This document shows positions 2,088 to 19,808 of a stretch of DNA of 19,808 bases, in pieces. Position 1 is the first letter of the stretch. Each line of letters begins with the position of its first letter. Source of the stretch: a virus. Taxonomy: Duplodnaviria; Heunggongvirae; Uroviricota; Caudoviricetes. The position numbers and the translations under genes were made by a program. The stretch lies in the IMG/VR virus record IMGVR_UViG_2617270952_000001. One strand, given 5' to 3'. The notes beneath the pieces are model-generated. The model was not told the origin of the DNA. It saw only the letters and a list, made by a program, of their open reading frames with translations, and made no database searches.

Positions 2088-2341
2088 ATTAATGGATTAA
2101 CTATGTCGGTTAAACGACCAGCCAACTGAAAAAGCGGAAACCTGATTACAGGTTGCCAGATAAGGCAATGAGCTACCTGGCGCGGAACGGACTGATAAGT
2201 ATGGGGAATGTTTTACGATGAACCTTTAGACTAAAGAGTTTGTAACGCTATGTAAGTGATTTTTTCTGGTTTAGATATTTATATGTCCGGCCAAATTGAG
2301 GTGTGTTTAAATGTAATTGCACATTGATTGTAGGAGGAATA

Positions 2342-2521: not shown

Positions 2522-2576
2522 ATACAGCGAACTCCATTGGTTTAGTTGGATATTTACTGTGCTGGACAAAAACGGT

Positions 2577-2604
2577 TTGCGGGGAAATCTTAGTTAAGTA
2601 GAAT
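2577..2604 (+). promoter_or_regulatory. Candidate sigma-70 promoter of the hok-like toxin mRNA
   Basis: TTGCGG (2577-2582), a 16-nt spacer, then TAGAAT (2599-2604). This places the start near 2611, where similarity to the 5' end of hok mRNAs (GCTTGAGGCT.TCTGCCTC) begins. Confidence 0.4.
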
Positions 2605-2610
2605 GACTGC

Positions 2611-2795
2611 GGGTGCTTGAGGCTATCTGCCTCGGGCATGGACACCAACGGCAGATAGAGAAAAGCCCCAGTTAACATTACGCGTCCTGCAAGACGCTTA
2701 ACATTAATCTGAGGCCAATTTCATGCTAGACACATGTAGGTTAGCCTCTTACGTGCCGAAAGGCACGGAGAAGCAGGCTATTGTTAACACCAAGC
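2611..2795 (+). pseudogene. hok/mok-type type I toxin locus, 5' half (leader, mok-like ORF, SD and first codons), cut by the IS
   Basis: The 15-nt string GGAGAAGCAGGCTAT (2767-2781) is identical to the SD/start region of hokD at 6056-6070, but is followed by T (ATT) instead of G (ATG). The leader resembles plasmid R1 hok mRNA as I recall it (GCTTGAGGCTaTCTGCCTC, GGCAGAtAGA, AGCCCC, ATGcTAGaCACAT, TAGCCTCTTAC). The mok-like ORF ATG 2723 now runs into the IS and stops at 2798-2800. Confidence 0.6.
2658..2735 (-). ncRNA. Sok-like antisense RNA (approximate ends)
   Basis: The minus strand reads ...GTGTCTAGCATGAAATTGGCCTCAGATTAATGTTAAGCGTCTTGCAGGACGCGTAATGTTAACTGGGGCTTTTCTCT. It is complementary to the mok start region, contains a hairpin (GCGTC-TTGCAG-GACGC), and ends in a U-rich tail in the position of R1 Sok (...ACGGGGCUAUCUUCUUU, from memory). 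Confidence 0.4.
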
Positions 2796-4222: not shown

Positions 4223-4336
4223 TCGCGTTTCTGGTGTTCATTTTCGGGTGGTTTGTTACTTGTTTTACCGGGGATATGCCAGAAACGCGCTGAGTCAGTC
4301 TGGGCGGTGCGCGTAATGAGGCGTTATGGTAAATAG
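4220..4336 (+). pseudogene. hok-like toxin gene, 3' part (degenerate, frame-disrupted)
   Basis: A hydrophobic stretch (VAFLVFIFGWFVTCFTGD) aligns with the HokE transmembrane segment ending in GD. The C-terminal ...ICQKRAESVWAVRVMRRYGK* (stop 4334-4336; GGTAAATAGC versus R1 GGTAAGTAGC) lies in another frame. At least one frameshift is therefore present, in addition to ATT in place of ATG. Confidence 0.5.
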
Positions 4337-4562
4337 CCTATGCTAATGTCCGCTAAGAGCAAGAAGCGGAAGTTGGCAGTTTTGTGGACTGTCCCCACAA
4401 AAGTGACTACAGAAATAGTTGCAATTCATAATTGATCATGGGTTGTCAGTTAAACTCGTGGCGATTTAAATAGACTAATTGGGAGTGCGTCCATTACTTA
4501 TATCTTGTAATGTTAACTATCAGAAATGATACAAAGATAATATGTCTTTAAAGAAAAGGCTG

Positions 4563-4591
4563 ATGGCGAAAAGTGGCCCGATGAGGGCCAC
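4563..4591 (-). terminator. Rho-independent terminator downstream of flxA
   Basis: On the minus strand: GTGGCCC-TCATC-GGGCCAC followed by TTTTCGCC. Confidence 0.6.
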
Positions 4592-4605
4592 AATACGGCT
4601 GTCAC

Positions 4606-4938
4606 TTAGACGTAAATATCAATGGTGCCAGCGGTATTTGTATCGTCTTTTTTCTCTTCTTTTTTATCAGGCTGAACTGTCGCGTCTTCATTCTTTTTCT
4701 CTGCCTGCTGCCTTAACAACTGCTCCAGTTGAGCCCAGAGGCTTTCAATTTGCTTCTGTACCAATGCAGCCATTTCTTTTTTCTGCTGTGTCGTCATCCC
4801 CTCTTCCGATGAGATTTTCCCAAGCTTTTCAGTCAGCACCTGAATTTGTCTTGTGATTTTGGCTATTTCTGATGTTCCTTCCGGGGCGGAGTTGTTTGAA
4901 ATAACGGTTGAGGTATTTCCCTGAATTGTGACAGACAT
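4606..4938 (-). CDS. flxA: FlxA (Qin prophage, FliA-regulated protein)
   Basis: The 110-aa ORF MSVTIQGNTSTVISNNSAPEG...TAGTIDIYV is recognised as K-12 FlxA. An AAGGAG SD and a sigma-28 promoter lie upstream. Confidence 0.9.
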   Translation of the reverse strand: MSVTIQGNTSTVISNNSAPEGTSEIAKITRQIQVLTEKLGKISSEEGMTTQQKKEMAALVQKQIESLWAQLEQLLRQQAEKKNEDATVQPDKKEEKKDDTNTAGTIDIYV

Positions 4939-4961
4939 AGATTTCTCCTTTTAAAAAAGCA

Positions 4962-4988
4962 CTATCGGCATGCACAAAAAAATCTTTA
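4962..4988 (-). promoter_or_regulatory. Sigma-28 (FliA) class 3 promoter of flxA
   Basis: The minus strand reads TAAAGATT-N11-GCCGATAG, against the consensus TAAAGTTT-N11-GCCGATAA. Confidence 0.75.
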
Positions 4989-5069
4989 ATCGTATTTCTT
5001 GTGTCATTAATTGTTTGATGTTCAGATTGTTTTCCTCGCGGGCTGGCGCGCCTCAGAAAGTAAAGCTTG

Positions 5070-5097
5070 TTGACAGGGGTAAACGTTCGGCAATAAT
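5070..5097 (+). promoter_or_regulatory. Orphan near-consensus sigma-70 promoter pointing right (antisense to ydfV, towards relB)
   Basis: TTGACA (5070-5075), a 16-nt spacer, then AATAAT (5092-5097). No credible plus-strand ORF follows. Confidence 0.35.
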
Positions 5098-5140
5098 TTT
5101 CTGCCGCATGCGGGTGTTGCATAAAACGTGTTACGTTCCT

Positions 5141-5446
5141 TTATCGACAGGTCAGGTCACCGCTCACCCGCCGACGAGAAAGCAACACTGACATGCTAAA
5201 GCAAAAAATAGATGAATAAGTTGAGTTGTGCATATGTAGCCTGACCGTCACAAAGTATATGGTGTCTGTACCAGTAAGATGATGGCCGGACTCTTTAAAA
5301 ACGAGCTGACCTGCACAATACAGGATGGACTTAGCAATGGCTGCTCCTGGCACAAAGCGGACAGTGATCACCGTTCTTACGACTACTTTCTGACTTCCTT
5401 CGTGACTTGCCCTAAGCATGTTGTTGTGCGATACTTGTAATGACAT
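5141..5446 (-). CDS. ydfV: YdfV (Qin prophage, uncharacterised)
   Basis: The 101-aa ORF matches my recollection of K-12 YdfV. Its coding reality is doubtful because its start lies inside the relBE operator. Confidence 0.5.
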   Translation of the reverse strand: MSLQVSHNNMLRASHEGSQKVVVRTVITVRFVPGAAIAKSILYCAGQLVFKESGHHLTGTDTIYFVTVRLHMHNSTYSSIFCFSMSVLLSRRRVSGDLTCR

Positions 5447-5459
5447 TTGTAATTACAAG
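5432..5459 (+). promoter_or_regulatory. relBE operator (relO) / promoter region
   Basis: Palindromic repeats ACTTGTAATGACATTTGTAATTACAAG lie immediately upstream of the relB SD (AGAGG) and ATG 5471. Confidence 0.7.
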
Positions 5460-5470
5460 AGGTGTAAGAC

Positions 5471-5710
5471 ATGGGTAGCATTAACCTGCGTATTGACGAT
5501 GAACTTAAAGCGCGTTCTTACGCCGCGCTTGAAAAAATGGGTGTAACTCCTTCTGAAGCGCTTCGTCTCATGCTCGAGTATATCGCTGACAATGAACGCT
5601 TGCCGTTCAAACAGACACTCCTGAGTGATGAAGATGCTGAACTTGTGGAGATAGTGAAAGAACGGCTTCGTAATCCTAAGCCAGTACGTGTGACGCTGGA
5701 TGAACTCTGA
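5471..5710 (+). CDS. relB: RelB antitoxin
   Basis: The 79-aa MGSINLRIDDELKARSYAALEKMGV...VRVTLDEL is recognised as K-12 RelB. It overlaps relE by TGATG. Confidence 0.95.
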   Translation: MGSINLRIDDELKARSYAALEKMGVTPSEALRLMLEYIADNERLPFKQTLLSDEDAELVEIVKERLRNPKPVRVTLDEL

Positions 5711-5997
5711 TGGCGTATTTTCTGGATTTTGACGAGCGGGCACTAAAGGAATGGCGAAAGCTGGGCTCGACGGTACGTGAACAGTTGAAAAAGAAGCTGG
5801 TTGAAGTACTTGAGTCACCCCGGATTGAAGCAAACAAGCTCCGTGGTATGCCTGATTGTTACAAGATTAAGCTCCGGTCTTCAGGCTATCGCCTTGTATA
5901 CCAGGTTATAGACGAGAAAGTTGTCGTTTTCGTGATTTCTGTTGGGAAAAGAGAACGCTCGGAAGTATATAGCGAGGCGGTCAAACGCATTCTCTGA
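5710..5997 (+). CDS. relE: RelE mRNA interferase toxin
   Basis: The 95-aa MAYFLDFDERALKEWRKLGSTVREQLKKKL...AVKRIL is recognised as K-12 RelE. Confidence 0.95.
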   Translation: MAYFLDFDERALKEWRKLGSTVREQLKKKLVEVLESPRIEANKLRGMPDCYKIKLRSSGYRLVYQVIDEKVVVFVISVGKRERSEVYSEAVKRIL

Positions 5998-6068
5998 ACC
6001 AAAGCATGACATCTCTGTTTCGCACCGAAGGTGACACTTCTGCTTTGCGTTGACAGGAGAAGCAGGCT

Positions 6069-6224
6069 ATGAAGCAGCAAAAGGCGATGTTAATCGCCCT
6101 GATCGTCATCTGTTTAACCGTCATAGTGACGGCACTGGTAACGAGGAAAGACCTCTGCGAGGTACGAATCCGAACCGGCCAGACGGAGGTCGCTGTCTTC
6201 ACAGCTTACGAACCTGAGGAGTAA
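6069..6224 (+). CDS. hokD: HokD (RelF) small membrane toxin, 51 aa
   Basis: ATG 6069 sits behind GGAGAAG. The protein MKQQKAMLIALIVICLTVIVTALVTRKDLCEVRIRTGQTEVAVFTAYEPEE* is below the ORF-track length cut-off. Confidence 0.9.
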   Translation: MKQQKAMLIALIVICLTVIVTALVTRKDLCEVRIRTGQTEVAVFTAYEPEE

Positions 6225-6292
6225 GAGACCCGGCGGGGGAGAAATCCCTCGCCACCTCTGATGTGGCAGGCATCCTCAACGCACCCGCACTT

Positions 6293-6318
6293 AACCCGCT
6301 TCGGCGGGGTTTTGTTTT
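6293..6318 (+). terminator. Rho-independent terminator of relB-relE-hokD
   Basis: CCCGC-TTCG-GCGGG followed by GTTTTGTTTTTATTTT. Confidence 0.7.
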
Positions 6319-6440
6319 TATTTTCAACGCGTTTGAAGTTCTGGACGGTGCCGGAATAGAATCAAAAATACTTAAGTAGCGCGCAGGGATAAGAGGGATG
6401 GTCCCTTAAAGGGGAGAGCTAATTATCCGGAAGGATTCTG

Positions 6441-6692
6441 ATGATGAACATCGAAGAACTGCGTAAAATTTTTTGTGAAGATGGCCTCTATGCTGTGTGC
6501 GTTGAAAATGGAAATCTTGTTAGTCATTACCGCATTATGTGTTTGCGAAAGAATGGGGCTGCGTTAATTAATTTTGTGGATGCTCGGGTCACGGACGGAT
6601 TTATCTTGCGCGAAGGTGAGTTTGTCACTTCATTACAGGCATTGAAAGAGATCGGAATAAAAGCTGGCTTTTCTGCTTTTTCAGGAGAATAA
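6441..6692 (+). CDS. rem: Rem (Qin prophage, uncharacterised)
   Basis: The 83-aa MMNIEELRKIFCEDGLYAVCVENGNLVSHYRIMCLRKNG... is recognised as K-12 Rem. Confidence 0.85.
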   Translation: MMNIEELRKIFCEDGLYAVCVENGNLVSHYRIMCLRKNGAALINFVDARVTDGFILREGEFVTSLQALKEIGIKAGFSAFSGE

Positions 6693-6758
6693 ACTCATCT
6701 ACAATCTTGCGCGGGGCTGAACTCCCGCTGAGTAACACCGTGCCACCGGAGAAAACCG

Positions 6759-7158
6759 ATGGCACGCAACGCAAAATATTACAATTCTGATAATTCGCCC
6801 GTTCTTGCCTGCACGCACGGGCGGTATTCTCACGCATTCAAGTCTGAATGGTTCCAGCACCCTCCATGCACTGCAGAACAGGCCGAATGGCTGATTCATT
6901 CTTACCGCAGGCGCGGGTTCGAGGTTAAGAAAGCTCTCAGTCTCGACTATGCCAGCCGACGATCCGCATCATCTGATTGGTCACGGGCAGGGCGGAATGG
7001 GAACAAAAGCACATGATCTCTTTGTGTTGCCTTTGTGCAGAAAGCATCACAACGAGCTGCATACGGATACAGTGGCATTTGAAGATAAGTATGGCTCCCA
7101 ACTGGAGCTGATATTTCGTTTTATCGATCGCGCGCTGGCAATTGGCGTACTGGCGTAA
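6759..7158 (+). pseudogene. ydfU: ydfU-like (DUF968/HNH-like) gene, split over two frames and much shorter than I recall for K-12 ydfU
   Basis: ATG 6759 with a GGAGA SD opens frame 0 (stop 7014-7016). The conserved C-terminal module PADDPHHLIGHGQGGMGTKAHDLFVLPLCRKHHNELH (His-rich HNH-like) is in frame +1 (open 6895..7158). Only about 480 bp lie between rem and quuQ. Confidence 0.5.
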
Positions 7159-7171
7159 GTGGAGAACGAGC

Positions 7172-7924
7172 ATGAACCTTGAAGCCTTACCAAAATATTA
7201 CTCCCCAAAATCTCCAAAATTGAGCGATGACGCTCCAGCGACAGGCACCGGTTGTTTAACAATTACGGATGTAATGGCAGCGCAGGGGATGGTGCAGTCG
7301 AAAGCACCACTTGGGTTGGCCTTATTTCTGGCAAAAGTTGGTGTTCAGGACCCTCAGTTTGCGATTGAAGGCCTGCTAAATTACGCGATGGCACTGGATA
7401 ACCCGACATTGAACAAATTGAGTGAAGAAATCCGGTTACAGATTATTCCTTACCTCGTGAGTTTTGCCTTTGCTGATTACTCCAGGTCTGCGGCAAGTAA
7501 GGCTCGCTGTGAGCATTGTTCAGGTACGGGATTTTATAATGTATTGCGCGAAGTGGTGAAACACTACAGACGCGGGGAATCTGTAATCAAGGAAGAATGG
7601 GTGAAGGAACTATGTCAGCATTGCCATGGTAAGGGCGAAGCCAGCACAGCGTGCAGAGGGTGTAAGGGTAAAGGGATTGTTCTGGATGAAAAAAGAACCC
7701 GGTTTCATGGCGTACCGGTATATAAGATTTGTGGGCGTTGTAATGGAAACCGGTTTAGTCGTTTACCGACCACGCTGGCACGACGTCATGTCCAGAAGCT
7801 GGTACCAGACCTGACCGATTATCAGTGGTATAAGGGGTATGCGGACGTCATTGGTAAACTGGTAACAAAGTGCTGGCAGGAAGAAGCATACGCGGAAGCG
7901 CAATTGAGGAAGGTGACGAGATAA
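7172..7924 (+). CDS. quuQ: Late-gene antiterminator Q (Qin type)
   Basis: The 250-aa MNLEALPKYYSPKSPKLSDDAPATG...AQLRKVTR is recognised as K-12 QuuQ (YdfT). It is followed by a late promoter and terminator. Confidence 0.9.
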   Translation: MNLEALPKYYSPKSPKLSDDAPATGTGCLTITDVMAAQGMVQSKAPLGLALFLAKVGVQDPQFAIEGLLNYAMALDNPTLNKLSEEIRLQIIPYLVSFAFADYSRSAASKARCEHCSGTGFYNVLREVVKHYRRGESVIKEEWVKELCQHCHGKGEASTACRGCKGKGIVLDEKRTRFHGVPVYKICGRCNGNRFSRLPTTLARRHVQKLVPDLTDYQWYKGYADVIGKLVTKCWQEEAYAEAQLRKVTR

Positions 7925-7955
7925 ATGATTTTTGCTGAAGATGGCGACATGATGT

Positions 7956-7984
7956 TTGCATTTTTCAAAAAATATGGATAAAAT
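7956..7984 (+). promoter_or_regulatory. pR'-like late promoter
   Basis: TTGCAT (7956-7961), a 17-nt spacer, then TAAAAT (7979-7984), located 30 nt after the Q stop. Confidence 0.65.
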
Positions 7985-8029
7985 TTTTTCAACGATGGGC
8001 TTTGTATACCCGACGTTAAGAAAAAGTAG

Positions 8030-8060
8030 AAAACCCGCTGATGAGCGGGTTTTGTGCTTT
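8030..8060 (+). terminator. tR'-like intrinsic terminator (target of Q antitermination)
   Basis: AAACCCGC-TGATGA-GCGGGTTT followed by TGTGCTTT, about 65 nt downstream of the predicted start. Confidence 0.7.
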
Positions 8061-8345
8061 AAATGGGGCAATGGTAATGTTGAATCTCATCCCGGGACTC
8101 ATGTCTGTTAACTTATTATTTAGCTGGTGACTTGGTTATTTGCCTGATGTTTAAAATGTTTTCTTCCAGTACAATGTCCCTAAACACAATGAGTCTGCTT
8201 ATTATATTATTAGCAGAGCTATTACGGCCAAAGTACAGCATAAGCTTTTAAAGCCAATCAACCAGTCATCAAGACAGACGGGGTTATTCATAAAAACTCT
8301 CCATGTGTGATCCGATGGGGCCTGAAATTAAAGCTTTAATATAGC

Positions 8346-8558
8346 TCATGAAAGGTAAACATTGGCAGCTGAAGGGCCACGCAGACCATTTATCCGGCAA
8401 AATTCCACGCGTAATCCGGTGGTAATTTCTTCTGCATCGCGGAGATTGAGCGCTGAAACATGAAGCTGGACATCGATACGACCATCGGATGGGGTGATAA
8501 GACCCTTGCCGCTTTTGCCGTCAAAGGTTTTGACAATTCCTGTCATTTTACGGGACAA
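8346..8558 (-). CDS. cspF: CspF, CspA-family protein
   Basis: The 70-aa [45 protein letters not shown]... is recognised as K-12 CspF. Confidence 0.9.
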
Positions 8559-8662
8559 AAAAATTCCTTAATACTGATAACTTGGCGCACTATACACACG
8601 TTCCTGAAGAAAGCTATAGTTTTTTGATGGGGTTGAAGATGGCTGGATGTCTAAAATAAACA

Positions 8663-8716
8663 TTGCTTCATATGTTCAACTATGCGTTAATGATTGCGTC
8701 GGTTTGAAGAACAGAC
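8663..8716 (+). promoter_or_regulatory. cspB promoter and cold-box at the start of a long 5' UTR
   Basis: TTGCTT (8663-8668), a 17-nt spacer, then GTTAAT (8686-8691), then GGTTTGAAGAACAGAC (8701-8716). This parallels the cspA GGTTTGACGTACAGAC cold box. GCCGAAAGGC (8830-8839) lies upstream of the SD, as in cspA. Confidence 0.6.
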
Positions 8717-8858
8717 GATATACGAAGTAGTTTACTAAAGCAGTTCTCATTTCAGGTGTTATTCACTTATTCCTTCTTTGAGTCTCTCCAATTAAGTACG
8801 AAGTCGTTTCTGTTATGCAAACCATTTATGCCGAAAGGCTCAAGTTAAGGAATGTAGA

Positions 8859-9074
8859 ATGTCAAATAAAATGACTGGTTTAGTAAAATGGTTTAACGCT
8901 GATAAAGGTTTCGGCTTTATTTCTCCTGTTGATGGTAGTAAAGATGTGTTTGTGCATTTTTCTGCGATTCAGAATGATAATTATCGAACCTTATTTGAAG
9001 GTCAAAAGGTTACCTTCTCTATAGAGAGTGGTGCTAAAGGTCCTGCAGCAGCAAATGTCATCATTACTGATTAA
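8859..9074 (+). CDS. cspB: CspB cold-shock protein
   Basis: The 71-aa [38 protein letters not shown]... carries RNP1/RNP2 motifs and is recognised as K-12 CspB. Confidence 0.95.
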
Positions 9075-9185
9075 AATTCATCGCTCGTCTGTATACGATA
9101 ACGAAGAAGGCTGATGCCTGAGTAGAGATACGGACAGAGTAGTGAATATTGGATCTCTTTAATAAAAAGTAAGGAGGTCCAATAC

Positions 9186-9221
9186 ATGAAACAATGGCTA
9201 GCATATTTGGCAAAATCTTAA
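9186..9221 (+). CDS. Candidate 11-codon mini-ORF (MKQWLAYLAKS) behind a perfect SD
   Basis: AAGGAGG (9171-9177) lies 8 nt before ATG 9186. I recognise no homolog, so this is speculative. Confidence 0.25.
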   Translation: MKQWLAYLAKS

Positions 9222-9355
9222 TCAGGAAAAGTATGCTAACCATTGTGGTGAAGTGCAGGTTTGCTGCATGAATAGTTTTACAGCAGAAGCTAACTGCTGG
9301 CATGGCAAAACAAAGTGCGTAAGTGGATGACTCCCACAAAAAGCACCACAATCTC

Positions 9356-9379
9356 AAACCCGCTCAGGCGGGTTTTTTA
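9356..9379 (+). terminator. Rho-independent terminator
   Basis: AAACCCGC-TCAG-GCGGGTTT followed by TTTATT. Confidence 0.7.
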
Positions 9380-9437
9380 TTATCTGCTTTAAATATATTA
9401 TTAAAATATAAAAAATACTTGTTACTAATAAAATCAA

Positions 9438-9608
9438 TCAGGCTACAGCTTTAAGATTTGTCTGGAATACTTTGTTGCAATGAGGGCAGATCAAAAGGGC
9501 ACCTTTTTGTACTCTTGAAAAACTGTGTTCTGACTCTTGGGTGCAGTTTGGGCAGGAACATTTAACGAGATAATTACGGCGTGATTTTGAGTTTTTACGT
9601 TCTGACAT
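9438..9608 (-). CDS. ynfU: Small zinc-ribbon protein (56 aa), YnfU-like
   Basis: ATG 9608 sits behind an AGGA SD. The protein MSERKNSKSRRNYLVKCSCPNCTQESEHSFSRVQKGALLICPHCNKVFQTNLKAVA has CxxC...CxxC. The name is from memory of K-12 small-protein annotation. Confidence 0.6.
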   Translation of the reverse strand: MSERKNSKSRRNYLVKCSCPNCTQESEHSFSRVQKGALLICPHCNKVFQTNLKAVA

Positions 9609-9827
9609 AGGCTTTTCCTGTATAAATGGCCGTATACAGTACACTAAATATGAAAACATTTCTCGTATTATTATTTTATATATGACTTTCTTTCAAAATA
9701 ATTACCCACATTTTTAATGTGTATGTTTTTTTAGCGCCGTTGAGAACAACGTGTGCTGTCAAAACTACCCCGTAGACTCCGATCTTTTCAAACATATTGC
9801 ACCATCCGTGTACATCGGGGTGAGGAT

Positions 9828-10043
9828 ATGAAATCAATGGATAAGTTAACAACAGGTGTTGCCTATGGCACATCGGCGGGTAATGCTGGTTTCTGGGCAT
9901 TGCAGTTACTCGATAAAGTAACTCCGTCACAGTGGGCTGCAATCGGTGTGCTGGGTAGCCTGGTTTTTGGCCTGCTGACGTATCTGACAAATCTTTATTT
10001 CAAGATTAAAGAAGACAGGCGTAAGGCTGCGAGAGGAGAGTAA
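9828..10043 (+). CDS. essQ: Phage-21-type pinholin with dual start (MKSMDK)
   Basis: The 71-aa [71 protein letters not shown] is close to S21 as I recall it. It has two TM segments and Met1/Met4 starts. Confidence 0.9.
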
Positions 10044-10047
10044 TCCA

Positions 10048-10355
10048 ATGACTCAAGACTATGAACTGGTTGTGAAAGGAGTCCGTAATTTTGAGAATAA
10101 AGTTACGGTAACTGTAGCCTTACAGGACAAAGAACGCTTTGACGGTGAAATTTTTGACCTGGATGTCGCCATGGACCGTGTTGAAGGAGCTGCGCTGGAG
10201 TTTTATGAGGCAGCAGCCAGAAGGAGCGTCCGGCAAGTCTTCCTGGAAGTAGCAGAAAAATTGTCAGAAAAAGTTGAGTCTTATCTGCAGCATCAGTACT
10301 CCTTTAAGATTGAAAATCCTGCCAATAAGCACGAGCGTCCTCATCATAAATATCT

Positions 10356-10359
<4 letters not shown>
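10048..10359 (+). CDS. ydfR: YdfR (DUF1327)
   Basis: The 103-aa ORF lies between the holin and endolysin genes. Its stop overlaps the rrrQ start (ATGA). Confidence 0.8.
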
Positions 10360-11383
<1,024 letters not shown>

Positions 11384-11565
11384 GGTAATATTAAATCGGA
11401 ACATTTACATCGCGGAATGTAAAATTTAAATAAAAAGGACTCTTCCATGAGCCAAAATTCCTGAAATCTTAAGGGTAAGATAAAAGGTCTTAATCAGAAT
11501 GACACGTTTTATTAATAAATAAAGCTATTCTTTCATTGCTGTGTTTTTCTTTACAAAAGTAATCC

Positions 11566-11616
11566 TTGCTATGGGTGGTTAATCATGCGTTAATGGTGTT
11601 CTGGTTTGTTACAAAT
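11566..11616 (+). promoter_or_regulatory. cspI promoter and cold-box-like element
   Basis: TTGCTA (11566-11571), a 17-nt spacer, then GTTAAT (11589-11594), then GGTTTGTTACAAAT (11603-11616). This is the same architecture as upstream of cspB. Confidence 0.55.
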
Positions 11617-11745
11617 TTATCTGAAGCAGTCATTGTTATAATTTTATTATTTGTACCTCTTGAGATTTCCTTGTTGGTTTTTCTCTCTGATATTTTTTTT
11701 CGGACCATTCTGCCCAAGGGCTAATTTCTTCAAAAGGTAATAATT

Positions 11746-11958
11746 ATGTCTAACAAAATGACTGGTTTAGTGAAATGGTTTAACCCTGAAAAAGGTTTTG
11801 GTTTCATCACGCCGAAAGATGGCAGCAAAGATGTGTTTGTCCATTTCTCAGCAATTCAGAGCAACGATTTCAAAACATTAACTGAGAATCAGGAAGTTGA
11901 ATTTGGTATTGAGAACGGACCTAAAGGTCCTGCCGCTGTTCATGTAGTGGCGCTTTGA
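11746..11958 (+). CDS. cspI: CspI cold-shock protein
   Basis: The 70-aa [45 protein letters not shown]... is recognised as K-12 CspI. Confidence 0.95.
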
Positions 11959-11968
11959 GGTAGACAAT

Positions 11969-12157
11969 ATTACAAACCATATTCACTTTAGATGCCCGTG
12001 TTGTCATGGTTCCCAGTATAGAACATCATCTTTTGATGTTTCTGACATGAATCCTTTCGGGGCAAAATGTATCTTTTGTAAATCAATGATGATTACATTT
12101 GATAATATTTCACAATACTTAAATGCCAGCCGTCTGTCGTTGGATTTAAAAAAGTGA
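11969..12157 (+). CDS. Zinc-ribbon small protein ORF lacking a canonical start (possible ATT start or start-loss pseudogene)
   Basis: The frame is open from 11948 and reads (I)TNHIHFRCPCCHGSQYRTSSFDVSDMNPFGAKCIFCKSMMITFDNISQYLNASRLSLDLKK* (TGA 12155-12157). CxxC...CxxC is present. GAGG (11957-11960) lies 8 nt before ATT 11969, and the first ATG is codon 25 counting from ATT 11969, downstream of the first CxxC. A terminator follows. Confidence 0.4.
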   Translation: MTNHIHFRCPCCHGSQYRTSSFDVSDMNPFGAKCIFCKSMMITFDNISQYLNASRLSLDLKK

Positions 12158-12162
12158 AAATG

Positions 12163-12186
12163 AAGGCTCCTTCGGGAGCTTTTTTG
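12163..12186 (+). terminator. Rho-independent terminator
   Basis: AAGGCTCC-TTCG-GGAGCTT followed by TTTTG. Confidence 0.7.
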
Positions 12187-12229
12187 CTTGGTGTCTATTC
12201 GATGGATACTCACATACTACGGTAACATC

Positions 12230-12460
12230 ATGAAAAAAATCATAGTTTTTTTTAACTCTGAACCAGCAGTGGTAGTGCCAGCGATGACTGGAGTTAACAC
12301 CATCATGCGTGAATATCCAAATGGCGAAAAAACACACCTTACTGTAATGGCCGCAGGGTTTCCATCTCTGACCGGAGATCATAAAGTCATTTATGTAGCC
12401 GCGGATCGACATGTTACTTCAGAAGAAATTCTGGAAGCAGCAATAAGGCTCTTGAGTTGA
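12230..12460 (+). CDS. Hypothetical protein (76 aa)
   Basis: ATG 12230 opens MKKIIVFFNSEPAVVVPAMTGVNTIMREYPNGEKTHLTVMAAGFPSLTGDHKVIYVAADRHVTSEEILEAAIRLLS. The SD is weak and I did not recognise the family. Confidence 0.45.
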   Translation: MKKIIVFFNSEPAVVVPAMTGVNTIMREYPNGEKTHLTVMAAGFPSLTGDHKVIYVAADRHVTSEEILEAAIRLLS

Positions 12461-12631
12461 TTTGATGCTATTGCATTGATAATTCAGGAAAATTCTCTTT
12501 GTCTGTTTGTGTAAAATTTAGACTATCGTATGTTGATTATTGCGATGTTTCATCTTATCTTTTACACGTTTGCACCATATAATCGACTTACTGTGTAACT
12601 GGAAAGTCATAACAGACTAAAAGAGGAAATG

Positions 12632-12805
12632 ATGAATATTGAAAACTTAAAAACAAAAGCAGAAGCAGATATTTCTGAATATATAACAAAAAAAATTATT
12701 GAACTTAAGAAAAAGACCGGGAAAGAAGTTACCAGTATTCAGTTTACCGCACGGGAAAAAATGACGGGTCTTGAAAGCTATGATGTCAAGATTAATTTAA
12801 TCTGA
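12632..12805 (+). CDS. gnsB: Gns-family protein (GnsA/GnsB-like)
   Basis: MNIENLKTKAEADISEYITKKIIELKKKTGKEVTSIQFTAREKMTGLESYDVKINLI has the conserved FTAREKMTGLESYDVKI core. An AAGAGGAAA SD is present. There are tandem ATGs at 12629 and 12632. The sequence diverges from my recollection of K-12 GnsB. Confidence 0.7.
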   Translation: MNIENLKTKAEADISEYITKKIIELKKKTGKEVTSIQFTAREKMTGLESYDVKINLI

Positions 12806-12956
12806 TGTATTCAATAATAAAATTTATCCATAAACCTCGTTTTTACGGGGTTTTGTTATATTTGAATGGTTCCGAATATCTAAATCACAATTGTTGATGG
12901 TTTTTATTAAACCAATGCAGTCCGGCTCAGGAGTGAGAGAAGCCGGACGTTATGGT

Positions 12957-13367
12957 TTAGCGTGGTAAGATCTGTGTAGTTTTCTGGATGCTTTCAGTAA
13001 ATAGTAATGAATTATCAAAGGTATAGTAATATCTTTTTTGTTCGTGGATATTTGTAACCCACCGAAAAACTCCTGCTTTAGCAAGGTTTCTTCTGTATTC
13101 CTGAAATGTGATCTCTCTGGATTTCAGCTTATTAGAGGTCGTTTCTATAAGATGCCTATCCTTTGAAAATTTGACAGACACAATGTTTTTTAGGCCCTTT
13201 AATAACACTGTATTATCATTTTTTAATACAATATGAACATTCTCTGTGGCTAAATAGTAAATGTAATGTGAGACATTGTGACGTTTTAGCTCAGAATAAA
13301 ACCATTGATAGTTTAAATCGTTTCGAACTTTATCAAATATTTGTTTAAAAATGACTACCTGATCCAT
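12957..13367 (-). CDS. ydfO: YdfO (DUF1398)
   Basis: The 136-aa [45 protein letters not shown]... is recognised as K-12 YdfO. Confidence 0.85.
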
Positions 13368-13424
13368 AGATAAACCTTCCATGTGATATGAGGGGGCGTA
13401 GTCTGCACGATTATCTAAATTGCT

Positions 13425-13658
13425 TCAATCTGGTCTGACCTGTTTTCTGAGCAATTCAGTAATGTCACTCTTTTCTTTGTTTGCTTCAGAAGAAACTCTT
13501 TTTTCTGAGCACAGTCTCCGGCGGCAGGCTTCAATGACCCAGGCTGAGAAATTCCCGGACCCTTTTTGCTCAAGAGCGATGTTAATTTGTTCAATCATTT
13601 GGTTAGGAAAGCGGATGTTGCGGGTTGTTGTTCTGCGGGTTCTGTTCTTCGTTGACAT
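13425..13658 (-). CDS. ynfO: YnfO (homolog of the small ORF at the right end of lambda)
   Basis: 77 aa, MSTKNRTRRTTTRNIRFPNQMIEQINIALEQKGSGNFSAWVIEACRRRL.... The flanking DNA matches the lambda right arm end as I recall it. Confidence 0.75.
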   Translation of the reverse strand: MSTKNRTRRTTTRNIRFPNQMIEQINIALEQKGSGNFSAWVIEACRRRLCSEKRVSSEANKEKSDITELLRKQVRPD

Positions 13659-13857
13659 GAGGTTGCCCCGTATTCAGTGTCGCTGATTTGTATTGTCTGA
13701 AGTTGTTTTTACGTTAAGTTGATGCAGATCAATTAATACGATACCTGCGTCATAATTGATTATTTGACGTGGTTTGATGGCCTCCACGCACGTTGTGATA
13801 TGTAGATGATAATCATTATCACTTTACGGGTCCTTTCCGGTGATCCGACAGGTTACG

Positions 13858-13869
13858 GGGCGGCGACCT
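13858..13869 (+). other. cosN, the 12-nt lambda cohesive-end sequence
   Basis: GGGCGGCGACCT is preceded by ...TCCGACAGGTTACG and followed by CGCGGGTTTTCGCTATTTATG. This is the joined lambda right and left ends. Confidence 0.9.
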
Positions 13870-13904
13870 CGCGGGTTTTCGCTATTTATGAAAATTTTCC
13901 GGTT

Positions 13905-14030
13905 TAAGGTGTTTCCGTTCTTCTTCGTCGTAACTTAATGTTTTTATTTAAAATACCCCCTGAAAAGAAAGGAAACGACAGGTGCTGAAAGCGGGCTTTT
14001 TGGCCTTTGTCGTTTCCTTTCTCTGTTTTT
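13905..14030 (+). promoter_or_regulatory. cosB terminase (Nu1) binding region with R3, R2 and R1 repeats
   Basis: GTTTCCGTTCTTCTTCG (about 13911-13927), GAAAGGAAACGACAG (inverted, about 13967-13981) and TGTCGTTTCCTTTCTC (about 14008-14023) are present, as in lambda. Confidence 0.75.
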
Positions 14031-14046
14031 GTCCGTGGAATGAACA

Positions 14047-14592
14047 ATGGAAGTCAACAAAAAGCAGCTGGCTGACATTTTCGGTGCGAGTATCCGTACC
14101 ATTCAGAACTGGCAGGAACAGGGAATGCCCGTTCTGCGAGGCGGTGGCAAGGGTAATGAGGTGCTTTATGATTCTGCCGCCGTCATAAAATGGTATGCCG
14201 AAAGGGATGCTGAAATTGAGAACGAAAAGCTGCGCCGGGAAGTTGAAGAACTGCGGCAGGCCAGCGAGACAGATCTCCAGCCAGGGACTATTGAGTACGA
14301 ACGCCATCGACTTACGCGTGCGCAGGCCGACGCACAGGAGCTGAAAAATGCCAGAGACTCCGCTGAAGTGGTGGAAACCGCATTCTGTACTTTCGTGCTG
14401 TCGCGGATCGCAGGTGAAATTGCCAGTATTCTCGACGGGATCCCCCTGTCGGTGCAGCGGCGTTTTCCGGAACTGGAAAACCGACATGTTGATTTCCTGA
14501 AACGGGATATCATCAAAGCCATGAACAAAGCAGCCGCGCTGGATGAACTGATACCGGGGTTGCTGAGTGAATATATCGAACAGTCAGGTTAA
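14047..14592 (+). CDS. nu1: Terminase small subunit Nu1 (NohA/NohQ equivalent), full length
   Basis: The 181-aa MEVNKKQLADIFGASIRTIQNWQEQGMPVLRGGGKGNEVLYDSAAVIKWYAERD... is near-identical to lambda Nu1 from memory. Confidence 0.95.
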   Translation: MEVNKKQLADIFGASIRTIQNWQEQGMPVLRGGGKGNEVLYDSAAVIKWYAERDAEIENEKLRREVEELRQASETDLQPGTIEYERHRLTRAQADAQELKNARDSAEVVETAFCTFVLSRIAGEIASILDGIPLSVQRRFPELENRHVDFLKRDIIKAMNKAAALDELIPGLLSEYIEQSG

Positions 14593-15703
14593 CAGGCTGC
14601 GGCATTTTGTCCGCGCCGGGCTTCGCTCACTGTTCAGGCCGGAGCCACAGACCGCCGTTGAATGGGCGGATGCCAATTACTATCTCCCGAAAGAATCCGC
14701 ATACCAGGAAGGGCGCTGGGAAACACTGCCCTTTCAGCGGGCCATCATGAATGCGATGGGCAGCGACTACATCCGCGAGGTGAATGTGGTGAAGTCTGCC
14801 CGTGTTGGTTATTCCAAAATGCTGTTGGGTGTTTATGCCTACTTCATAGAGCATAAGCAGCGCAACACACTTATCTGGTTGCCGACGGATGGTGATGCCG
14901 AGAACTTTATGAAAACCCACGTTGAGCCGACCATCCGTGATATTCCTTCGCTGCTGGCGCTGGCCCCGTGGTATGGCAAAAAGCACCGGGATAACACGCT
15001 CACCATGAAGCGTTTCACCAATGGGCGTGGCTTCTGGTGCCTGGGCGGTAAAGCGGCAAAAAACTACCGTGAAAAGTCAGTGGATGTGGCGGGGTATGAT
15101 GAACTTGCTGCCTTTGATGAGGATATTGAACAGGAAGGCTCTCCGACGTTCCTGGGCGATAAGCGTATTGAAGGCTCTGTCTGGCCAAAATCCATCCGTG
15201 GCTCCACGCCCAAAGTGAGAGGCACCTGCCAGATTGAGCGTGCAGCCAGTGAATCCCCGCATTTTATGCGTTTTCATGTTGCCTGCCCGCACTGCGGGAA
15301 GGAGCAGTACCTTAAATTTGGCGACAAAGAGACGCCGTTTGGCCTCAAATGGATGCCGGATGATCCCTCCAGCGTGTTTTATCTCTGTGAGCATAATGCC
15401 TGCGTCATCCGTCAGCAGGAGCTGGACTTTACTGATGCCCGTTATATCTGCGAAAAGACCGGGATCTGGACCCGTGATGGCATTCTCTGGTTTTCGTCAT
15501 CCGGTGAAGAGATTGAACCGCCTGACAGTGTGACCTTTCACATCTGGACGGCGTACAGCCCGTTCACCACCTGGGTGCAGATTGTCAAAGACTGGATGAA
15601 GACGAAAGGGGATACTCCGTGTTTGAGCAGTCACTGTTGCGGTATATCGCTGCCGGGCTGGGTGTCTCGTATGAGCAGCTTTCCCGGAATTACGCCCAGA
15701 TGA
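14567..15703 (+). pseudogene. A: Terminase large subunit A, N-terminal ~349 codons only, fused out of frame to B-derived sequence
   Basis: The GTG 14567 start opens MNISNSQVNRLRHFVRAGLRS...KDWMKTKGDT, matching lambda gpA (641 aa) to about 15615. It then reads 28 unrelated codons to TGA 15701-15703. Confidence 0.9.
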
Positions 15704-16164
15704 GCTACTCCACGGCACGGGCCAGCGCGAACGAGTCGTGGGCGCACTTTATGGGGCGGCGAAAATTCGTCGCATCCCGTCAGGCGAGCCAGATGTTTCT
15801 GTGCTGGCTGGAAGAGGCCATCGTTCGCCGCGTGGTGACGTTACCTTCAAAAGCGCGCTTCAGCTTTCAGGAAGCCCGCAGCGCCTGGGGGAACTGTGAC
15901 TGGATAGGCTCCGGTCGTATGGCTATCGATGGTCTGAAAGAAGTACAGGAAGCGGTGATGCTGATAGAAGCCGGACTGAGCACCTACGAGAAAGAGTGCG
16001 CAAAACGCGGCGACGACTATCAGGAAATTTTTGCCCAGCAGGTCCGTGAAACGATGGAGCGCCGCGAAGCCGGTCTTAAACCGCCCGCCTGGGCGGCAGC
16101 GGCATTTGAATCCGGGCTGCGACAATCAACAGAGGAGGAGAAGAGTGACAGCAGAGCTGCGTAA
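15616..16164 (+). pseudogene. B: Portal protein B, C-terminal ~182 codons only
   Basis: SVFEQSLLRYIAAGLGVSYEQLSRNYAQMSYSTARASANESW...EEEKSDSRAA* matches the C-terminus of lambda gpB (533 aa). No N-terminal part or own start context is present. Confidence 0.9.
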
Positions 16165-17464
16165 TCTCCCGCATATTGCCAGCATGGCCTTTAATGAGCC
16201 GCTGATGCTTGAACCCGCCTATGCGCGGGTTTTCTTTTGTGCGCTTGCAGGCCAGCTTGGGATCAGCCGCCTGACGGATGCAGTATCCGGCGACAGCCTG
16301 ACTGCCGGAGAGGCACCCGCGGCGCTGGCGTTATCCGGTGATGATGACGGACCACGACAGGCCCGCAGTTATCAGGTCATGAACGGCATCGCCGTGCTGC
16401 CGGTGTCCGGTACGCTGGTCAGCCGGACGCGGGCGCTGCAGCCGTATTCGGGAATGACCGGTTACAACGGCATTATCGCCCGTCTGCAACAGGCTGCCAG
16501 CGATCCGATGGTGGACGGCATTCTGCTGGATATGGACACACCGGGCGGGATGGTGGCGGGAGCATTTGACTGTGCTGACATCATCGCCCGTGTGCGAGAC
16601 ATAAAACCGGTATGGGCGCTGGCCAACGACATGAACTGCAGTGCAGGTCAGCTGCTTGCCAGCGCCGCCTCCCGGCGTCTGGTCACGCAGACCGCCCGGA
16701 CAGGCTCCATCGGCGTCATGATGGCTCACAGTAATTACGGTGCTGCGCTGGAGAAACAGGGCGTGGAAATCACGCTGATTTACAGCGGCAGCCATAAGGT
16801 GGATGGCAACCCCTACAGCCATCTACCGGATGAGGTCCGGGAAACACTGCAGTCCCGGATGGATGCAACCCGCCGGATGTTTGCACAGAAGGTGTCGGCA
16901 TATACCGGCCTGTCCGTGCAGGCTGTGCTGGATACCGAGGCTGCAGTGTACAGCGGTCAGGAGGCCATTGATGCCGGACTGGCTGATGAACTTGTGAACA
17001 GTACCGATGCGATCACCGTCATGCGTGATGCACTGGATGCACGTAAATCCCGTCTCTCAGGAGGGCGAATGACCAAAGAGACTCAATCAACAACTGTTTC
17101 AGCCACTGCTTCGCAGGCTGACGTTACTGGCGTGGTGCAAGCGACGGAGGGCGAGAACGCCAGCGCTGCGCAGCCGGACGTGAACGCGCAGATCACCGCA
17201 GCGGTTGCGGCAGAAAACAGTCGCATTATGGGGATCCTCAACTGTGAGGAGGCTCACGGACGCGAAGAACAGGCATGCGTGCTGGCCGAAACCCCCGGTA
17301 TGACCGTGGAAACGGCCCGCCGTATTCTGGCCGCAGCACCACAGAGTGCACAGGCGCGCAGTGACACTGCGCTGGATCGTCTGATGCAGGGGGCACCGGC
17401 ACCGCTGGCTGCAGGTAACCCGGCATCTGATGCCGTTAACGATTTGCTGAACACACCAGTGTAA
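16145..17464 (+). CDS. C: Head maturation protease / scaffold C (ClpP/SppA-type), full length
   Basis: The GTG 16145 start opens (M)TAELRNLPHIASMAFNEPLMLEPAYARVFF...NDLLNTPV. It is 439 aa, with the 20-nt overlap with the B end seen in lambda. Confidence 0.9.
   Translation: MTAELRNLPHIASMAFNEPLMLEPAYARVFFCALAGQLGISRLTDAVSGDSLTAGEAPAALALSGDDDGPRQARSYQVMNGIAVLPVSGTLVSRTRALQPYSGMTGYNGIIARLQQAASDPMVDGILLDMDTPGGMVAGAFDCADIIARVRDIKPVWALANDMNCSAGQLLASAASRRLVTQTARTGSIGVMMAHSNYGAALEKQGVEITLIYSGSHKVDGNPYSHLPDEVRETLQSRMDATRRMFAQKVSAYTGLSVQAVLDTEAAVYSGQEAIDAGLADELVNSTDAITVMRDALDARKSRLSGGRMTKETQSTTVSATASQADVTGVVQATEGENASAAQPDVNAQITAAVAAENSRIMGILNCEEAHGREEQACVLAETPGMTVETARRILAAAPQSAQARSDTALDRLMQGAPAPLAAGNPASDAVNDLLNTPV
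16859..17464 (+). CDS. nu3: Scaffold protein Nu3, nested in frame in the 3' part of C
   Basis: The in-frame ATG 16859 (MDATRRMFAQKV...) corresponds to the lambda nu3 start position as I recall it (714 nt into C). Confidence 0.6.
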   Translation: MDATRRMFAQKVSAYTGLSVQAVLDTEAAVYSGQEAIDAGLADELVNSTDAITVMRDALDARKSRLSGGRMTKETQSTTVSATASQADVTGVVQATEGENASAAQPDVNAQITAAVAAENSRIMGILNCEEAHGREEQACVLAETPGMTVETARRILAAAPQSAQARSDTALDRLMQGAPAPLAAGNPASDAVNDLLNTPV

Positions 17465-17473
17465 GGGATGTTT

Positions 17474-17806
17474 ATGACGAGCAAAGAAACCTTTACCCAT
17501 TACCAGCCGCTGGGCAACAGTGACCCGGCTCATACCGCAACCGCGCCCGGCGGATTGAGTGCGAAAGCGCCTGCAATGACCCCGCTGATGCCGGACACCT
17601 CCACCCGTAAGCTGGTTGCGTGGGATGGCACCACCGACGGTGCTGCCGTTGGCATTCTTGCGGTTGCTGCTGACCAGACCAGCACCACACTGACGTTCTA
17701 CAAGTCCGGCACGTTCCGTTATGAGGATGTGCTCTGGCCGGAGGCTGCCAGCGACGAGACGAAAAAACGGACCGCGTTTGCCGGAACGGCAATCAGCATC
17801 GTTTAA
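17474..17806 (+). CDS. D: Head decoration protein D
   Basis: The 110-aa [39 protein letters not shown]...GTAISIV is near-identical to lambda gpD. Confidence 0.95.
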
Positions 17807-17823
17807 CCTGACCCTTCATCACT

Positions 17824-17849
17824 AAAGGCCGCCTGTGCGGCTTTTTTTA
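17824..17849 (+). terminator. Hairpin plus T-run between D and E (as in lambda)
   Basis: AGGCCGC-CTGT-GCGGCTT followed by TTTTTAC. Confidence 0.55.
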
Positions 17850-17861
17850 CGGGATTTTTTT

Positions 17862-19715
17862 ATGTCGATGTACACAACCGCCCAGCTGCTGGCGGCAAAT
17901 GAGCAGAAATTTAAGTTTGATCCGCTGTTTCTGCGTCTCTTTTTCCGTGAGAGCTATCCCTTCACTACGGAGAAAGTCTATCTCTCACAAATTCCGGGAC
18001 TGGTAAACATGGCGCTGTACGTTTCGCCGATTGTTTCCGGTGAGGTTATCCGTTCCCGTGGCGGCTCCACCTCTGAATTTACGCCGGGATATGTCAAACC
18101 CAAGCATGAGGTGAATCCGCAGATGACCCTGCGTCGCCTGCCGGATGAAGATCCGCAGAATCTGGCGGACCCGGCTTACCGCCGCCGTCGCATCATCATG
18201 CAGAACATGCGTGACGAAGAGCTGGCCATTGCTCAGGTCGAAGAGATGCAGGCAGTTTCTGCCGTGCTCAAGGGCAAATACACCATGACCGGTGAAGCCT
18301 TCGATCCGGTTGAGGTGGATACCGGAGCTTTGTGGAAGCGTACAGCCGTCGGATTAACGAATTTCGCCTGGATCAACACATCCGGCGATACATATGATAT
18401 TTACGTTGAGATTGGCAATTATGCGACGAGTGTAAATATCCATTGGGATTGTACTACAAATGCGTCAGTTTCTATTTATACCTCGCCAACATATTCAGCG
18501 AGTAAGCCTTCCAGCGTTACCGGTGGTGTTGTTTATACGATGTATAGCTCACATCAGAAACCTACACCATCAGATATTGGAGCGCTGCCAACGACTGGAG
18601 GGACTATTTCAGGTCCGTTGTCTGTTACTGATGGGATCACCGGGGCACTGAAGGGGAACGCCGATACCGCGACGAAACTTGCGGCAGCCCCAAAAATTAA
18701 CGGTGTTAAGTTTGATGGCTCGGCGGATATTAACCTCACGCCGGAAAATATTGGTGCATTTGCCCGACGTTCGACGGGGGCTTATGCGGATTCGGATGGA
18801 GCCGTTCCCTGGAATGCCGAATCAGGCGCTTACAATGTCACCCGCTCTGGCAACAGCTATATTCTGGTTAACTTCTATACCGGAGTCGGAAGTTGCCGGA
18901 CCTTGCAGATGAAGGCACATTACAGAAATGGAGGTCTGTTCTACCGTTCCTCAAGAGATGGCTATGGTTTTGAGGAAGACTGGGCAGAAGTTTATACCTC
19001 GAAAAATCTTCCACCAGAAAGCTACCCAGTCGGCGCACCAATCCCGTGGCCATCAGATACCGTTCCGTCTGGTTATGCCCTGATGCAGGGGCAGACTTTT
19101 GACAAATCTGCTTACCCGAAACTTGCAGCCGCTTATCCGTCAGGTGTGATCCCTGATATGCGTGGCTGGACGATTAAGGGCAAACCTGCCAGTGGTCGGG
19201 CCGTATTGTCTCAGGAACAGGACGGCATTAAATCGCACACCCACAGCGCCAGCGTATCCAGTACGGATTTGGGGACGAAAAACACATCGTCGTTTGATTA
19301 CGGAACCAAATCCACGAATAACACCGGGGCGCATACCCATAGTATTAGCGGGACTGCAAATAGTGCCGGTGCGCACCAACACAAGAGTTCCGGTGCATTT
19401 GGTGGCACGAACACGAGCATTTTCCCTAATGGTTATACCGCGATTTCAAATCTAAGCGCGGGGATTATGAGCACAACAAGCGGTAGTGGCCAGACTCGTA
19501 ATGCAGGGAAGACATCATCAGATGGTGCTCATACCCACTCGCTGTCCGGCACTGCTGCAAGCGCAGGCGCACACGCACATACTGTCGGTATTGGTGCTCA
19601 TACGCACTCCGTTGCGATTGGTTCACATGGACATACCATCACCGTTAACGCTGCTGGTAACGCGGAAAACACCGTCAAAAACATCGCATTTAACTATATT
19701 GTGAGGCTTGCGTAA
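17862..19715 (+). pseudogene. In-frame chimera: major capsid protein E codons 1 to ~153 fused to the distal ~464 codons of a side tail fibre (Stf) gene
   Basis: [28 protein letters not shown]...[10 protein letters not shown] matches lambda gpE up to nt 18321. [17 protein letters not shown]...[40 protein letters not shown] is StfR/lambda-Stf-like. The reading frame stays open across the junction. Confidence 0.85.
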
Positions 19716-19808
19716 TGGCATTCAGAATGAGTGAACAACCACGGACCATAAAAATTTATAATCTGCTGGCCGGAACTAATGAATTTATTGGTGAAGGTGA
19801 CGCATATA
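19715..19808 (+). CDS. tfa: Tail fibre assembly protein Tfa (3' partial at window edge)
   Basis: The start overlaps the stf stop (TAATG). [31 protein letters not shown] matches the lambda Tfa N-terminus. Confidence 0.9.

Follow-up and report, generated by a model that had tools for sequence, protein, structure and literature searches.

Positions 17862 to 19715 (plus strand) of IMGVR_UViG_2617270952_000001, a 19,808-nucleotide stretch of viral DNA whose full length is hereafter called the window, hold a single open reading frame (ORF) in which the beginning of a lambda-type major capsid gene, E, runs into the distal part of a side tail fibre gene, stf, and is followed by the fibre chaperone gene tfa. 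With a probability of about 85%, we read this ORF as a deletion scar in a defective lambda-like prophage of Escherichia coli, produced by ordinary decay rather than as a designed chimera, with a break point that is not random. The scar is recent, rare, accidentally in frame and of a kind already present in K-12, and no function is evidenced for it beyond that of a possible recombination donor. Its interest appears to lie in the break point, which is a member of a recurrent, motif-defined set of TA sites apparently shaping the decay of lambdoid prophages.

In the history proposed here, a single non-homologous join at a TA present in both genes would have removed about 15 kb, namely the rest of E, the genes from FI to J, lom and the proximal 588 codons of stf.

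The junction and its two parents

The fusion ORF starts with an ATG at 17862 and stops at 19713–19715, and it has 617 codons plus the stop codon in one open frame. In the ORF listing, the same frame opens earlier, with a GTG at 17835, and runs to 19715. This upstream start was chosen in the GenBank draft (contig JNMB01000053.1, E. coli 3-105-05_S3_C2, which the window covers in full), where the 626-residue product is called a "phage major capsid E family protein". In the complete genomes that have the identical junction, the annotation pipeline PGAP calls two pseudogene fragments instead, a partial major capsid protein and a partial tail fibre protein, and the disagreement is a caution for annotation.

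The capsid side, E' (17862–18321, plus strand), consists of codons 1–153 of E and the first base of codon 154. Window positions 17400–18321 are 98.7% identical to positions 5673–6594 of lambda (J02459), and the identity stops exactly at 18321. The alignment with the intact E of E. coli PCP06021 (98.8%) ends at the same position, as does the DNA identity of E' to the prophage locus L003. A first-pass annotation, made from the letters of the window alone, had placed the end of the identity with lambda E at this base, and the alignments to lambda and to the intact prophage genes agree with it. Residues 1–153 of the product are 100% identical to lambda gpE of solved structure (PDB 7VI9/7SJ5; 153 of 341 residues). 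The D–E intergenic region, which holds the native E translation start region (17807–17861, plus strand), is colinear with lambda 6080–6134 and with the regions upstream of intact prophage E genes, with zero differences from L003 past 17810. E' thus keeps its place after D, together with the native upstream region and start codon, and C and D are intact upstream. The ORF listing and the colinearity with lambda also bear out the earlier statement that the frame is kept in a 617-codon ORF with the native E start region. As in lambda, the D–E interval has a GC hairpin followed by a run of seven T (about 17826–17850), which resembles an intrinsic terminator but was not called by the terminator scan.

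Capsid proteins of the gpE type with the HK97 fold are built from an N-arm, an E-loop, a P-domain with a spine helix, and an A-domain (PMC5701804). E' keeps the N-arm, the E-loop and the spine-helix region, and lacks the A-domain and the remainder of the P-domain. Pfam PF03864 matches the fusion over profile positions 1–147 of 329 only, so that a full HK97 fold is not encoded.

The fibre side, 'stf (18322–19715, plus strand), corresponds to codons 589–1052 of a 1052-residue side tail fibre, plus the stop codon. From 18320/18322 onwards the DNA is 99.7–99.9% identical to the distal part of intact 1052-residue stf genes (L006, L007), from which it differs by 2–4 substitutions, at most one of them non-synonymous. 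Residues 154–617 of the fusion are 100% identical to residues 589–1052 of an intact Stf protein (P0014), and 'stf matches the tail fibre family PHROG 295 (E=9.5e-153). The GC content drops from 54.1% to 50.5% across the junction, with 48.6% in the first 480 nt of 'stf, which agrees with the more AT-rich fibre sequence that the first-pass annotation had noticed from 18322. The C-terminal part is a receptor-binding tip like that of T4 gp37 (19017–19712, plus strand), with a collar domain (19032–19175) and a needle that has seven HxH motifs (19236–19634). Indeed, residues 386–617, the C-terminal 232, align with the gp37 tip (PDB 2XGF, E=4e-83), and Pfam Collar PF07484 is found at residues 391–438 (E=3.7e-12). 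The tail-attachment domain PF08400, which occupies residues 1–134 of the intact 1052-residue parent, is not in the fusion, which therefore lacks the anchor of an Stf protein.

The cognate tfa lies directly downstream, its start overlapping the stf stop in TAATG (19713–19717), as had been reported before. The window holds 31 codons of it (19715–19808, plus strand), cut by the contig end; the complete tail fibre assembly gene, which encodes 193 residues, follows the identical junction in the complete genomes L001 and L004. A 597-residue, N-truncated Stf ORF (P0002; 84 member sequences, Shigella and E. coli) starts 133 residues upstream of the point where the window enters stf. It is presumably another common scar, or a disruption of the same fibre allele by an insertion sequence (IS).

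The two parents abut directly at 18320–18321, at a TA dinucleotide common to both. The E parent reads ...GGTGGATA up to the join and TGGG after it, and the stf parent reads ...AGGGATTA and then CCGG. The nucleotide alignment to both parents that had been suggested in the first-pass annotation shows that TA is the sole exact microhomology; there is no flanking homology at the join, the in-register DNA identity downstream being 34% over 111 nt (P=0.02). With both parents identified, the proposal that everything between the two genes was lost to join E(1–153) to distal Stf is upheld, and all the peptides quoted with it are present in the fusion translation. The original observation is correct in every checkable detail.

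Could residues 154 onward instead be a natural variant of the E family with a fibre-like C-terminal extension? Residues 154–190 of the fusion (18321–18431) align without gap and in register with E 154–190, with 8 of 37 positions identical (W170, TYD177–179, I184 and YA187–188 among the shared ones; P of about 0.002, post hoc), and because of this identity HMMER extends the capsid alignments to residue 190. The similarity is weak and absent at the DNA level, and the E-like register is probably a coincidence. A join guided by homology was rejected on the same figures. The stretch from 154 to 617 is ordinary Stf without a single difference from P0014, the fused architecture is found in one protein cluster only, on two contigs, and the junction occurs in none of 50,697 phage genome records. 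The chance that the fusion is an E-family variant is therefore negligible.

The same junction, with 100% identical flanks, was found in 5 of 5426 complete E. coli genomes (BS74R-D and IAL7250/52/54/55, from Switzerland and Brazil), and also, again at 100% identity, in one sibling draft and one IMG/VR contig. This recurrence refutes the idea that the junction is an artefact of the assembly or sequencing of a short-read draft, to which we give hardly any weight at all. The draft contig of 19.8 kb does end in an IS600 copy and a repeated tfa, and it is probably bridged elsewhere through a 1032-bp repeat (see below). In the complete genomes the scar lies at att-lambda, with ybhC on one side and ybhB-bioA on the other, in a prophage that is heavily eroded and that in all five is without immunity, replication and tail genes. 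Each flank of the scar is near-identical to a separate intact gene, the intervening genes are gone, and the junction, absent from phage records, is confined to eroded prophages, as befits a deletion scar.

The meaning of the open frame

E contributes 460 nt (153 codons and one base), and the fibre sequence then enters a codon at its second base, which accounts for the open frame across the join. E codon 154 would thus have been split after its first base and the frame kept by an accident of arithmetic. The ORF keeps the E start within the late operon and would be translated only if the late operon is transcribed. The product would be a capsid stump unable to assemble, followed by a fibre fragment unable to attach to a tail.

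The first-pass annotation had regarded a translatable fusion as unusual. A set of nine independent scars that join a late gene to distal stf does not support this view, since three of the nine are in frame (3/7 in an earlier set of scars). The in-frame scars are those of the window, K-12 stfQ and Nu1::stf in the metagenome contig L115; the out-of-frame scars are those of P377, VE-T2 and the IMG/VR contigs L018, L019, L021 and L022. Three in nine is the chance rate of one third, and the translatability of the window's fusion is accidental, that of a pseudogene-type scar. All copies of the scar are identical in sequence and offer no divergence on which to measure dN/dS. Given this identity and the mere 2–4 substitutions with respect to intact alleles, the scar is so young that an unbroken frame is no evidence of selection.

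The same annotation had also proposed that the fusion displays a receptor-binding tip on a capsid arm. A functional chimera of this type, or a dominant-negative capsid stump that would poison the heads of superinfecting lambda-like phages, could draw on the open frame, the native E start, the retained tfa and the complete gp37-like tip, and on the fact that E touches neighbouring subunits and gpD through its N-arm and E-loop (PMC5701804). Nevertheless, the in-frame rate is that of chance, and the frame is lost in sister scars that break E at this site. The scar is rare and has no sequence divergence that could reveal selection. There is no signal peptide or export route, the fibre fragment probably begins inside a domain, and PGAP calls pseudogenes. 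More than half of the HK97 fold and all of PF08400 are gone, and promoter-like and terminator-like matches in 13400–19808 show no excess over shuffled sequences. The proposed display is not supported by these results, and a functional chimera in either form is very improbable.

If it were made, the tip could still fold, since N-terminally tagged needle fragments of gp37 fold into native-like trimers with the chaperones gp38 and gp57A (PMC6957217); the C-terminal gp37-like tip might thus trimerise with Tfa. The DNA of the tip and of tfa may also act as a donor, by homologous recombination, for lambdoid phages that infect the cell, as had been suggested earlier. This idea is plausible and agrees with the recombination measured between lambda and the stf-tfa parts of Qin and Rac, at a frequency of about 2x10^-6 (PMC3945230). 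The ORF on its own matters little; it is one more reservoir of a gp37-like tip and tfa open to capture by infecting phages.

Recurrent TA break points

The E153 end point is used in three independent scars: that of the window, that of P377, and that of the metagenome contig L121, in which it is joined to Nu1. The E' allele of P377 differs from that of the window at 7 sites and the stf partners differ, which shows that the P377 deletion is independent of the window's. The partner site in P377, GGTCGGGTA followed by ACCGCG, is the site used in K-12 Qin.

Seventeen scars from seven prophages, K-12 Qin and DLP12 included, were compared with their parents, and TA lies inside the exact microhomology in 14 of them; three of these were examined only after the TA rule had been formulated. 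When the count takes in all joints for which the search pattern left the partner free, TA is present in 24 of 28, compared to a null expectation of 5%, obtained by simulation on lambda for joints that share 2 nt or more of microhomology. The joints listed in the window itself are at 18320–18321, 15613–15615, 6948–6950 and 594–596, and the loci behind the survey are L001, L002, L004, L005, L013, L014, L017, L018–L040 and L086–L149. Scans of genome and metagenome contigs with an 18-base pattern returned mostly chance matches in unrelated taxa, and only matches with lambda-like upstream sequence were kept.

Some end points are used again and again. In IMG/VR and metagenome contigs, the Nu1-171 site, which ends in GAACTGATA, is joined on its right to at least 17 different partners, one of which is the right-hand side of the E153 site. 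A parent could be identified for 11 of the new partners, and TA precedes 10 of these. Similarly, the stfQ708 site has at least nine left-hand partners (E62, E153, E297, A3, A80, Z, Nu1 and two unknown), and no copy of this site without TA was found in IMG/VR. Lambda position 31323 is used as an end point from both sides.

The 32 parental sites have a two-fold symmetric motif, CNNN-TA-NNNG. A C stands 4 nt 5' of the TA in 44 of the 64 half-sites (background 24%, P=4e-14); it is present on at least one strand in 30/32 sites (41% expected) and on both strands in 14/32 (6% expected). In the four parental sites that were found after the motif had been defined, 7 of 8 half-sites have this C. G is also enriched at positions -3 and -2. 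Chi-like GGTGG or GCTGG sequences were seen by eye 3–8 nt upstream of three left sites.

These regularities bear on an alternative, a generic illegitimate recombination mediated by microhomology and without sequence preference, for which the TA and the reuse of sites would be coincidental. A microhomology of 2 nt is typical of such events and the local DNA folding is unremarkable, a hairpin beside the E break point having a folding energy no better than that of shuffled sequences (z=+0.7). The frequency of TA at joints far above the simulated one, the exact recurrence of end points at E153, Nu1-171 and stfQ708 and the symmetric flanking motif all speak against it, and we consider it unlikely. 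A Pin-type DNA invertase acting at quasi crossover sites is a more remote alternative still. The gene of such an enzyme lies beside tfa in Qin-like prophages (pinQ adjoins tfaQ), the 2-nt identical core at the join is what serine recombinases require, and invertase-driven exchange of fibre genes has been discussed (PMC3945230). Yet no AAACC-NN-GGTTT-like core is found at or near the junction, and across the window matches to it are no more frequent than expected by chance. What is conserved in the parental sites, a C at -4 with G at -3 and -2, is unlike hix or gix half-sites, and most scars of this kind are far from stf. A deletion made by such an invertase is highly improbable.

Other sources of the break points were considered and rejected. 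Terminase cutting at a pseudo-site that resembles cosN was one of them: the site matrix places the cos junction only 377th among 4345 TA sites, and the TA is 2 nt away from the known nick. By inspection, 1 of 21 sites agrees with the IS5 target (YTAR), and the single IS30 copy that was looked at has a different target, with AC duplicated. The papers on IEE and the excision of IS3-family elements, and on Rpn nucleases, give no TA rule or comparable sequence rule. More generally, nothing comparable to the TA rule at prophage deletion joints was found in the literature searched.

In the deletion-scar account, a break at a recurrent CNNN-TA-NNNG site would point to a step of sequence-selective breakage and rejoining. 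Both strands would be cut just 5' of TA, with a 2-nt stagger that leaves TA overhangs, and an exchange of partners between such overhangs would give the left parent up to position -3, then TA, then the right parent from +1, as seen in the joints. A type IA topoisomerase is a candidate for this step. E. coli topoisomerase I, which belongs to this type, needs a cytosine 4 nt to the 5' side of the bond that it cuts (PMC3467081), and since the C at -4 of the sites matches this selectivity, provided that the cuts are 5' of TA, it is a candidate for the enzyme behind the TA joints.

Some points weigh against the account given so far. At the window's junction, both parents have the C at -4 on the bottom strand only. 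The size of 15 kb was taken from the lambda map and not from the true parent. The fibre fragment probably starts inside a globular insert, in which case the join would cut a domain, but this rests on a sequence pattern, the structure prediction (for the 597-residue P0002, with no alignment) having a predicted local distance difference test score (pLDDT) of 33. Lastly, a fusion product may be made at a low level and have some activity.

We suggest, as a tentative generalization that is somewhat more likely to fail than to hold, that the erosion of the late operon in lambdoid prophages of E. coli is driven largely by sequence-selective TA break-and-rejoin and not by random illegitimate recombination. 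If this is true, the architecture of K-12 Qin and DLP12, where nohA or nohD lies beside fibre-tip genes, has a mechanistic and not only a selective cause. Prophage decay would then be predictable from sequence, and a specific enzyme would be a testable driver of genome reduction.

Other scars of the lineage and known systems

A Qin setting for the scar is not supported, as it sits at att-lambda in every complete genome. Window positions 1–14559 are 99.9% identical to the Qin prophage of BS74R-D, whereas positions 13522–19808 are 100% identical to the att-lambda prophage of the IAL strains (in IAL7255, over 13522–14880 and 16228–19808). The two parts share an exact repeat of 1032 bp (13522–14553), from the ynfO/ylcI upstream region to nohA, which is common to the Qin and att-lambda prophages of related strains, and the Qin-like left arm is joined through it. 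The contig of the sibling assembly begins exactly at 13522, and in BS74R-D the Qin-type left arm and the att-lambda-type late region lie in two separate prophages. Judging from these alignments, the window is probably a contig bridged by this repeat, whether through chimeric assembly or through real recombination between prophages.

A second scar lies upstream of the first in the same late operon, at 15610–15615, where A breaks off at codon 349 and runs on, out of frame, into B codon 350, with a loss of 2.1 kb and a crossover in TAC. It leaves an A' ORF of 378 residues (14567–15703) and a C-terminal B ORF (15619–16164). Further deletions are nested in the same lineage: A'/'B, out of frame, in the window; A'/'C, out of frame, in IAL7255; and Nu1'::'C, in frame, in BS74R-D. 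A Nu1(1–171)::C ORF of 452 residues is found at 18707–20065 of L001. Other accidental in-frame fusions in relatives are essD'::'C, of 190 residues (L005, 5493–6065), and Nu1(1–171)::distal Stf (L115).

In the left part of the window, positions 1–214 are the end of the IS600 copy, and an intact ORF of 437 residues (2856–4169) stands where related strains have a transposase of the ISNCY or IS1202-like ISEsa1 type annotated as partial. Set against Qin-like prophages that are more complete, the window lacks the dicB-immunity region (4.7 kb) and most of ydfU (0.9 kb), with joints at 596/587 and 6950/6948. The window retains relBE, hokD, cspB/F/I and a Q-like antiterminator.

The nearest relatives of the scar are those of P377, at att-lambda, and of VE-T2 and VE-T10, at the DLP12 site. 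In these, as in the window, a capsid gene is joined to distal stf with a TA crossover and tfa is kept. The P377 scar has the same E end point but is out of frame, and its stf partner is codon ~708 of a Qin-type allele. In the VE-T2 scar, E is broken at codon 241, also out of frame, and the stf end point is more proximal, at a GGTCGGGTA site. The protein of BS74R-D annotated as "terminase small subunit" (Nu1 1–171::C, 452 residues) is likewise an accidental in-frame join of late genes at TA, in the same lineage as the window. PGAP accepted this fusion as a coding sequence, whereas it split the window's E'::'stf into two pseudogenes.

With lambda Stf/Tfa and T4 gp37/gp38, the window shares a gp37-like tip with collar and HxH needle, followed by a chaperone gene of the tfa/gp38 type. 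The comparison of residues 154–617 with Stf homologues, which had been recommended with the original observation, returned ordinary Stf; the tip is 92% identical to that of K-12 StfQ over 259 residues and 68% identical to lambda orf-314. Unlike lambda Stf and T4 gp37, the window's fusion has a capsid fragment in place of the proximal fibre and of the tail-attachment domain, and it cannot be a component of the virion. Lambda PaPa also has a disrupted stf, because of the frameshift that separates orf-401 from orf-314.

The Qin prophage of K-12 (nohA-stfQ-tfaQ, b1548–b1546) offers a close parallel: as in the window, the genes from packaging to distal stf are deleted, and the fibre tip and tfa are kept. 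The first-pass annotation had cited Qin as an analogous, larger deletion. The comparison confirms this and makes the parallel closer, since stfQ itself (b1547; L013, MG1655 1635798–1635860, the nohA/stfQ overlap) is an in-frame scar. There, codons 1–3 of A (GTG AAT ATA) are joined at a TA crossover to stf codon ~708, and the start codon of stfQ is the GTG of A, the gene of the terminase large subunit. The Qin deletion is the larger one: it begins at A codon 3 and not at E codon 153, and it ends 119 codons further into stf. The window's scar, which sits at att-lambda in complete genomes, differs from that of K-12 Qin in keeping nohA, A', 'B, C, D and E'.

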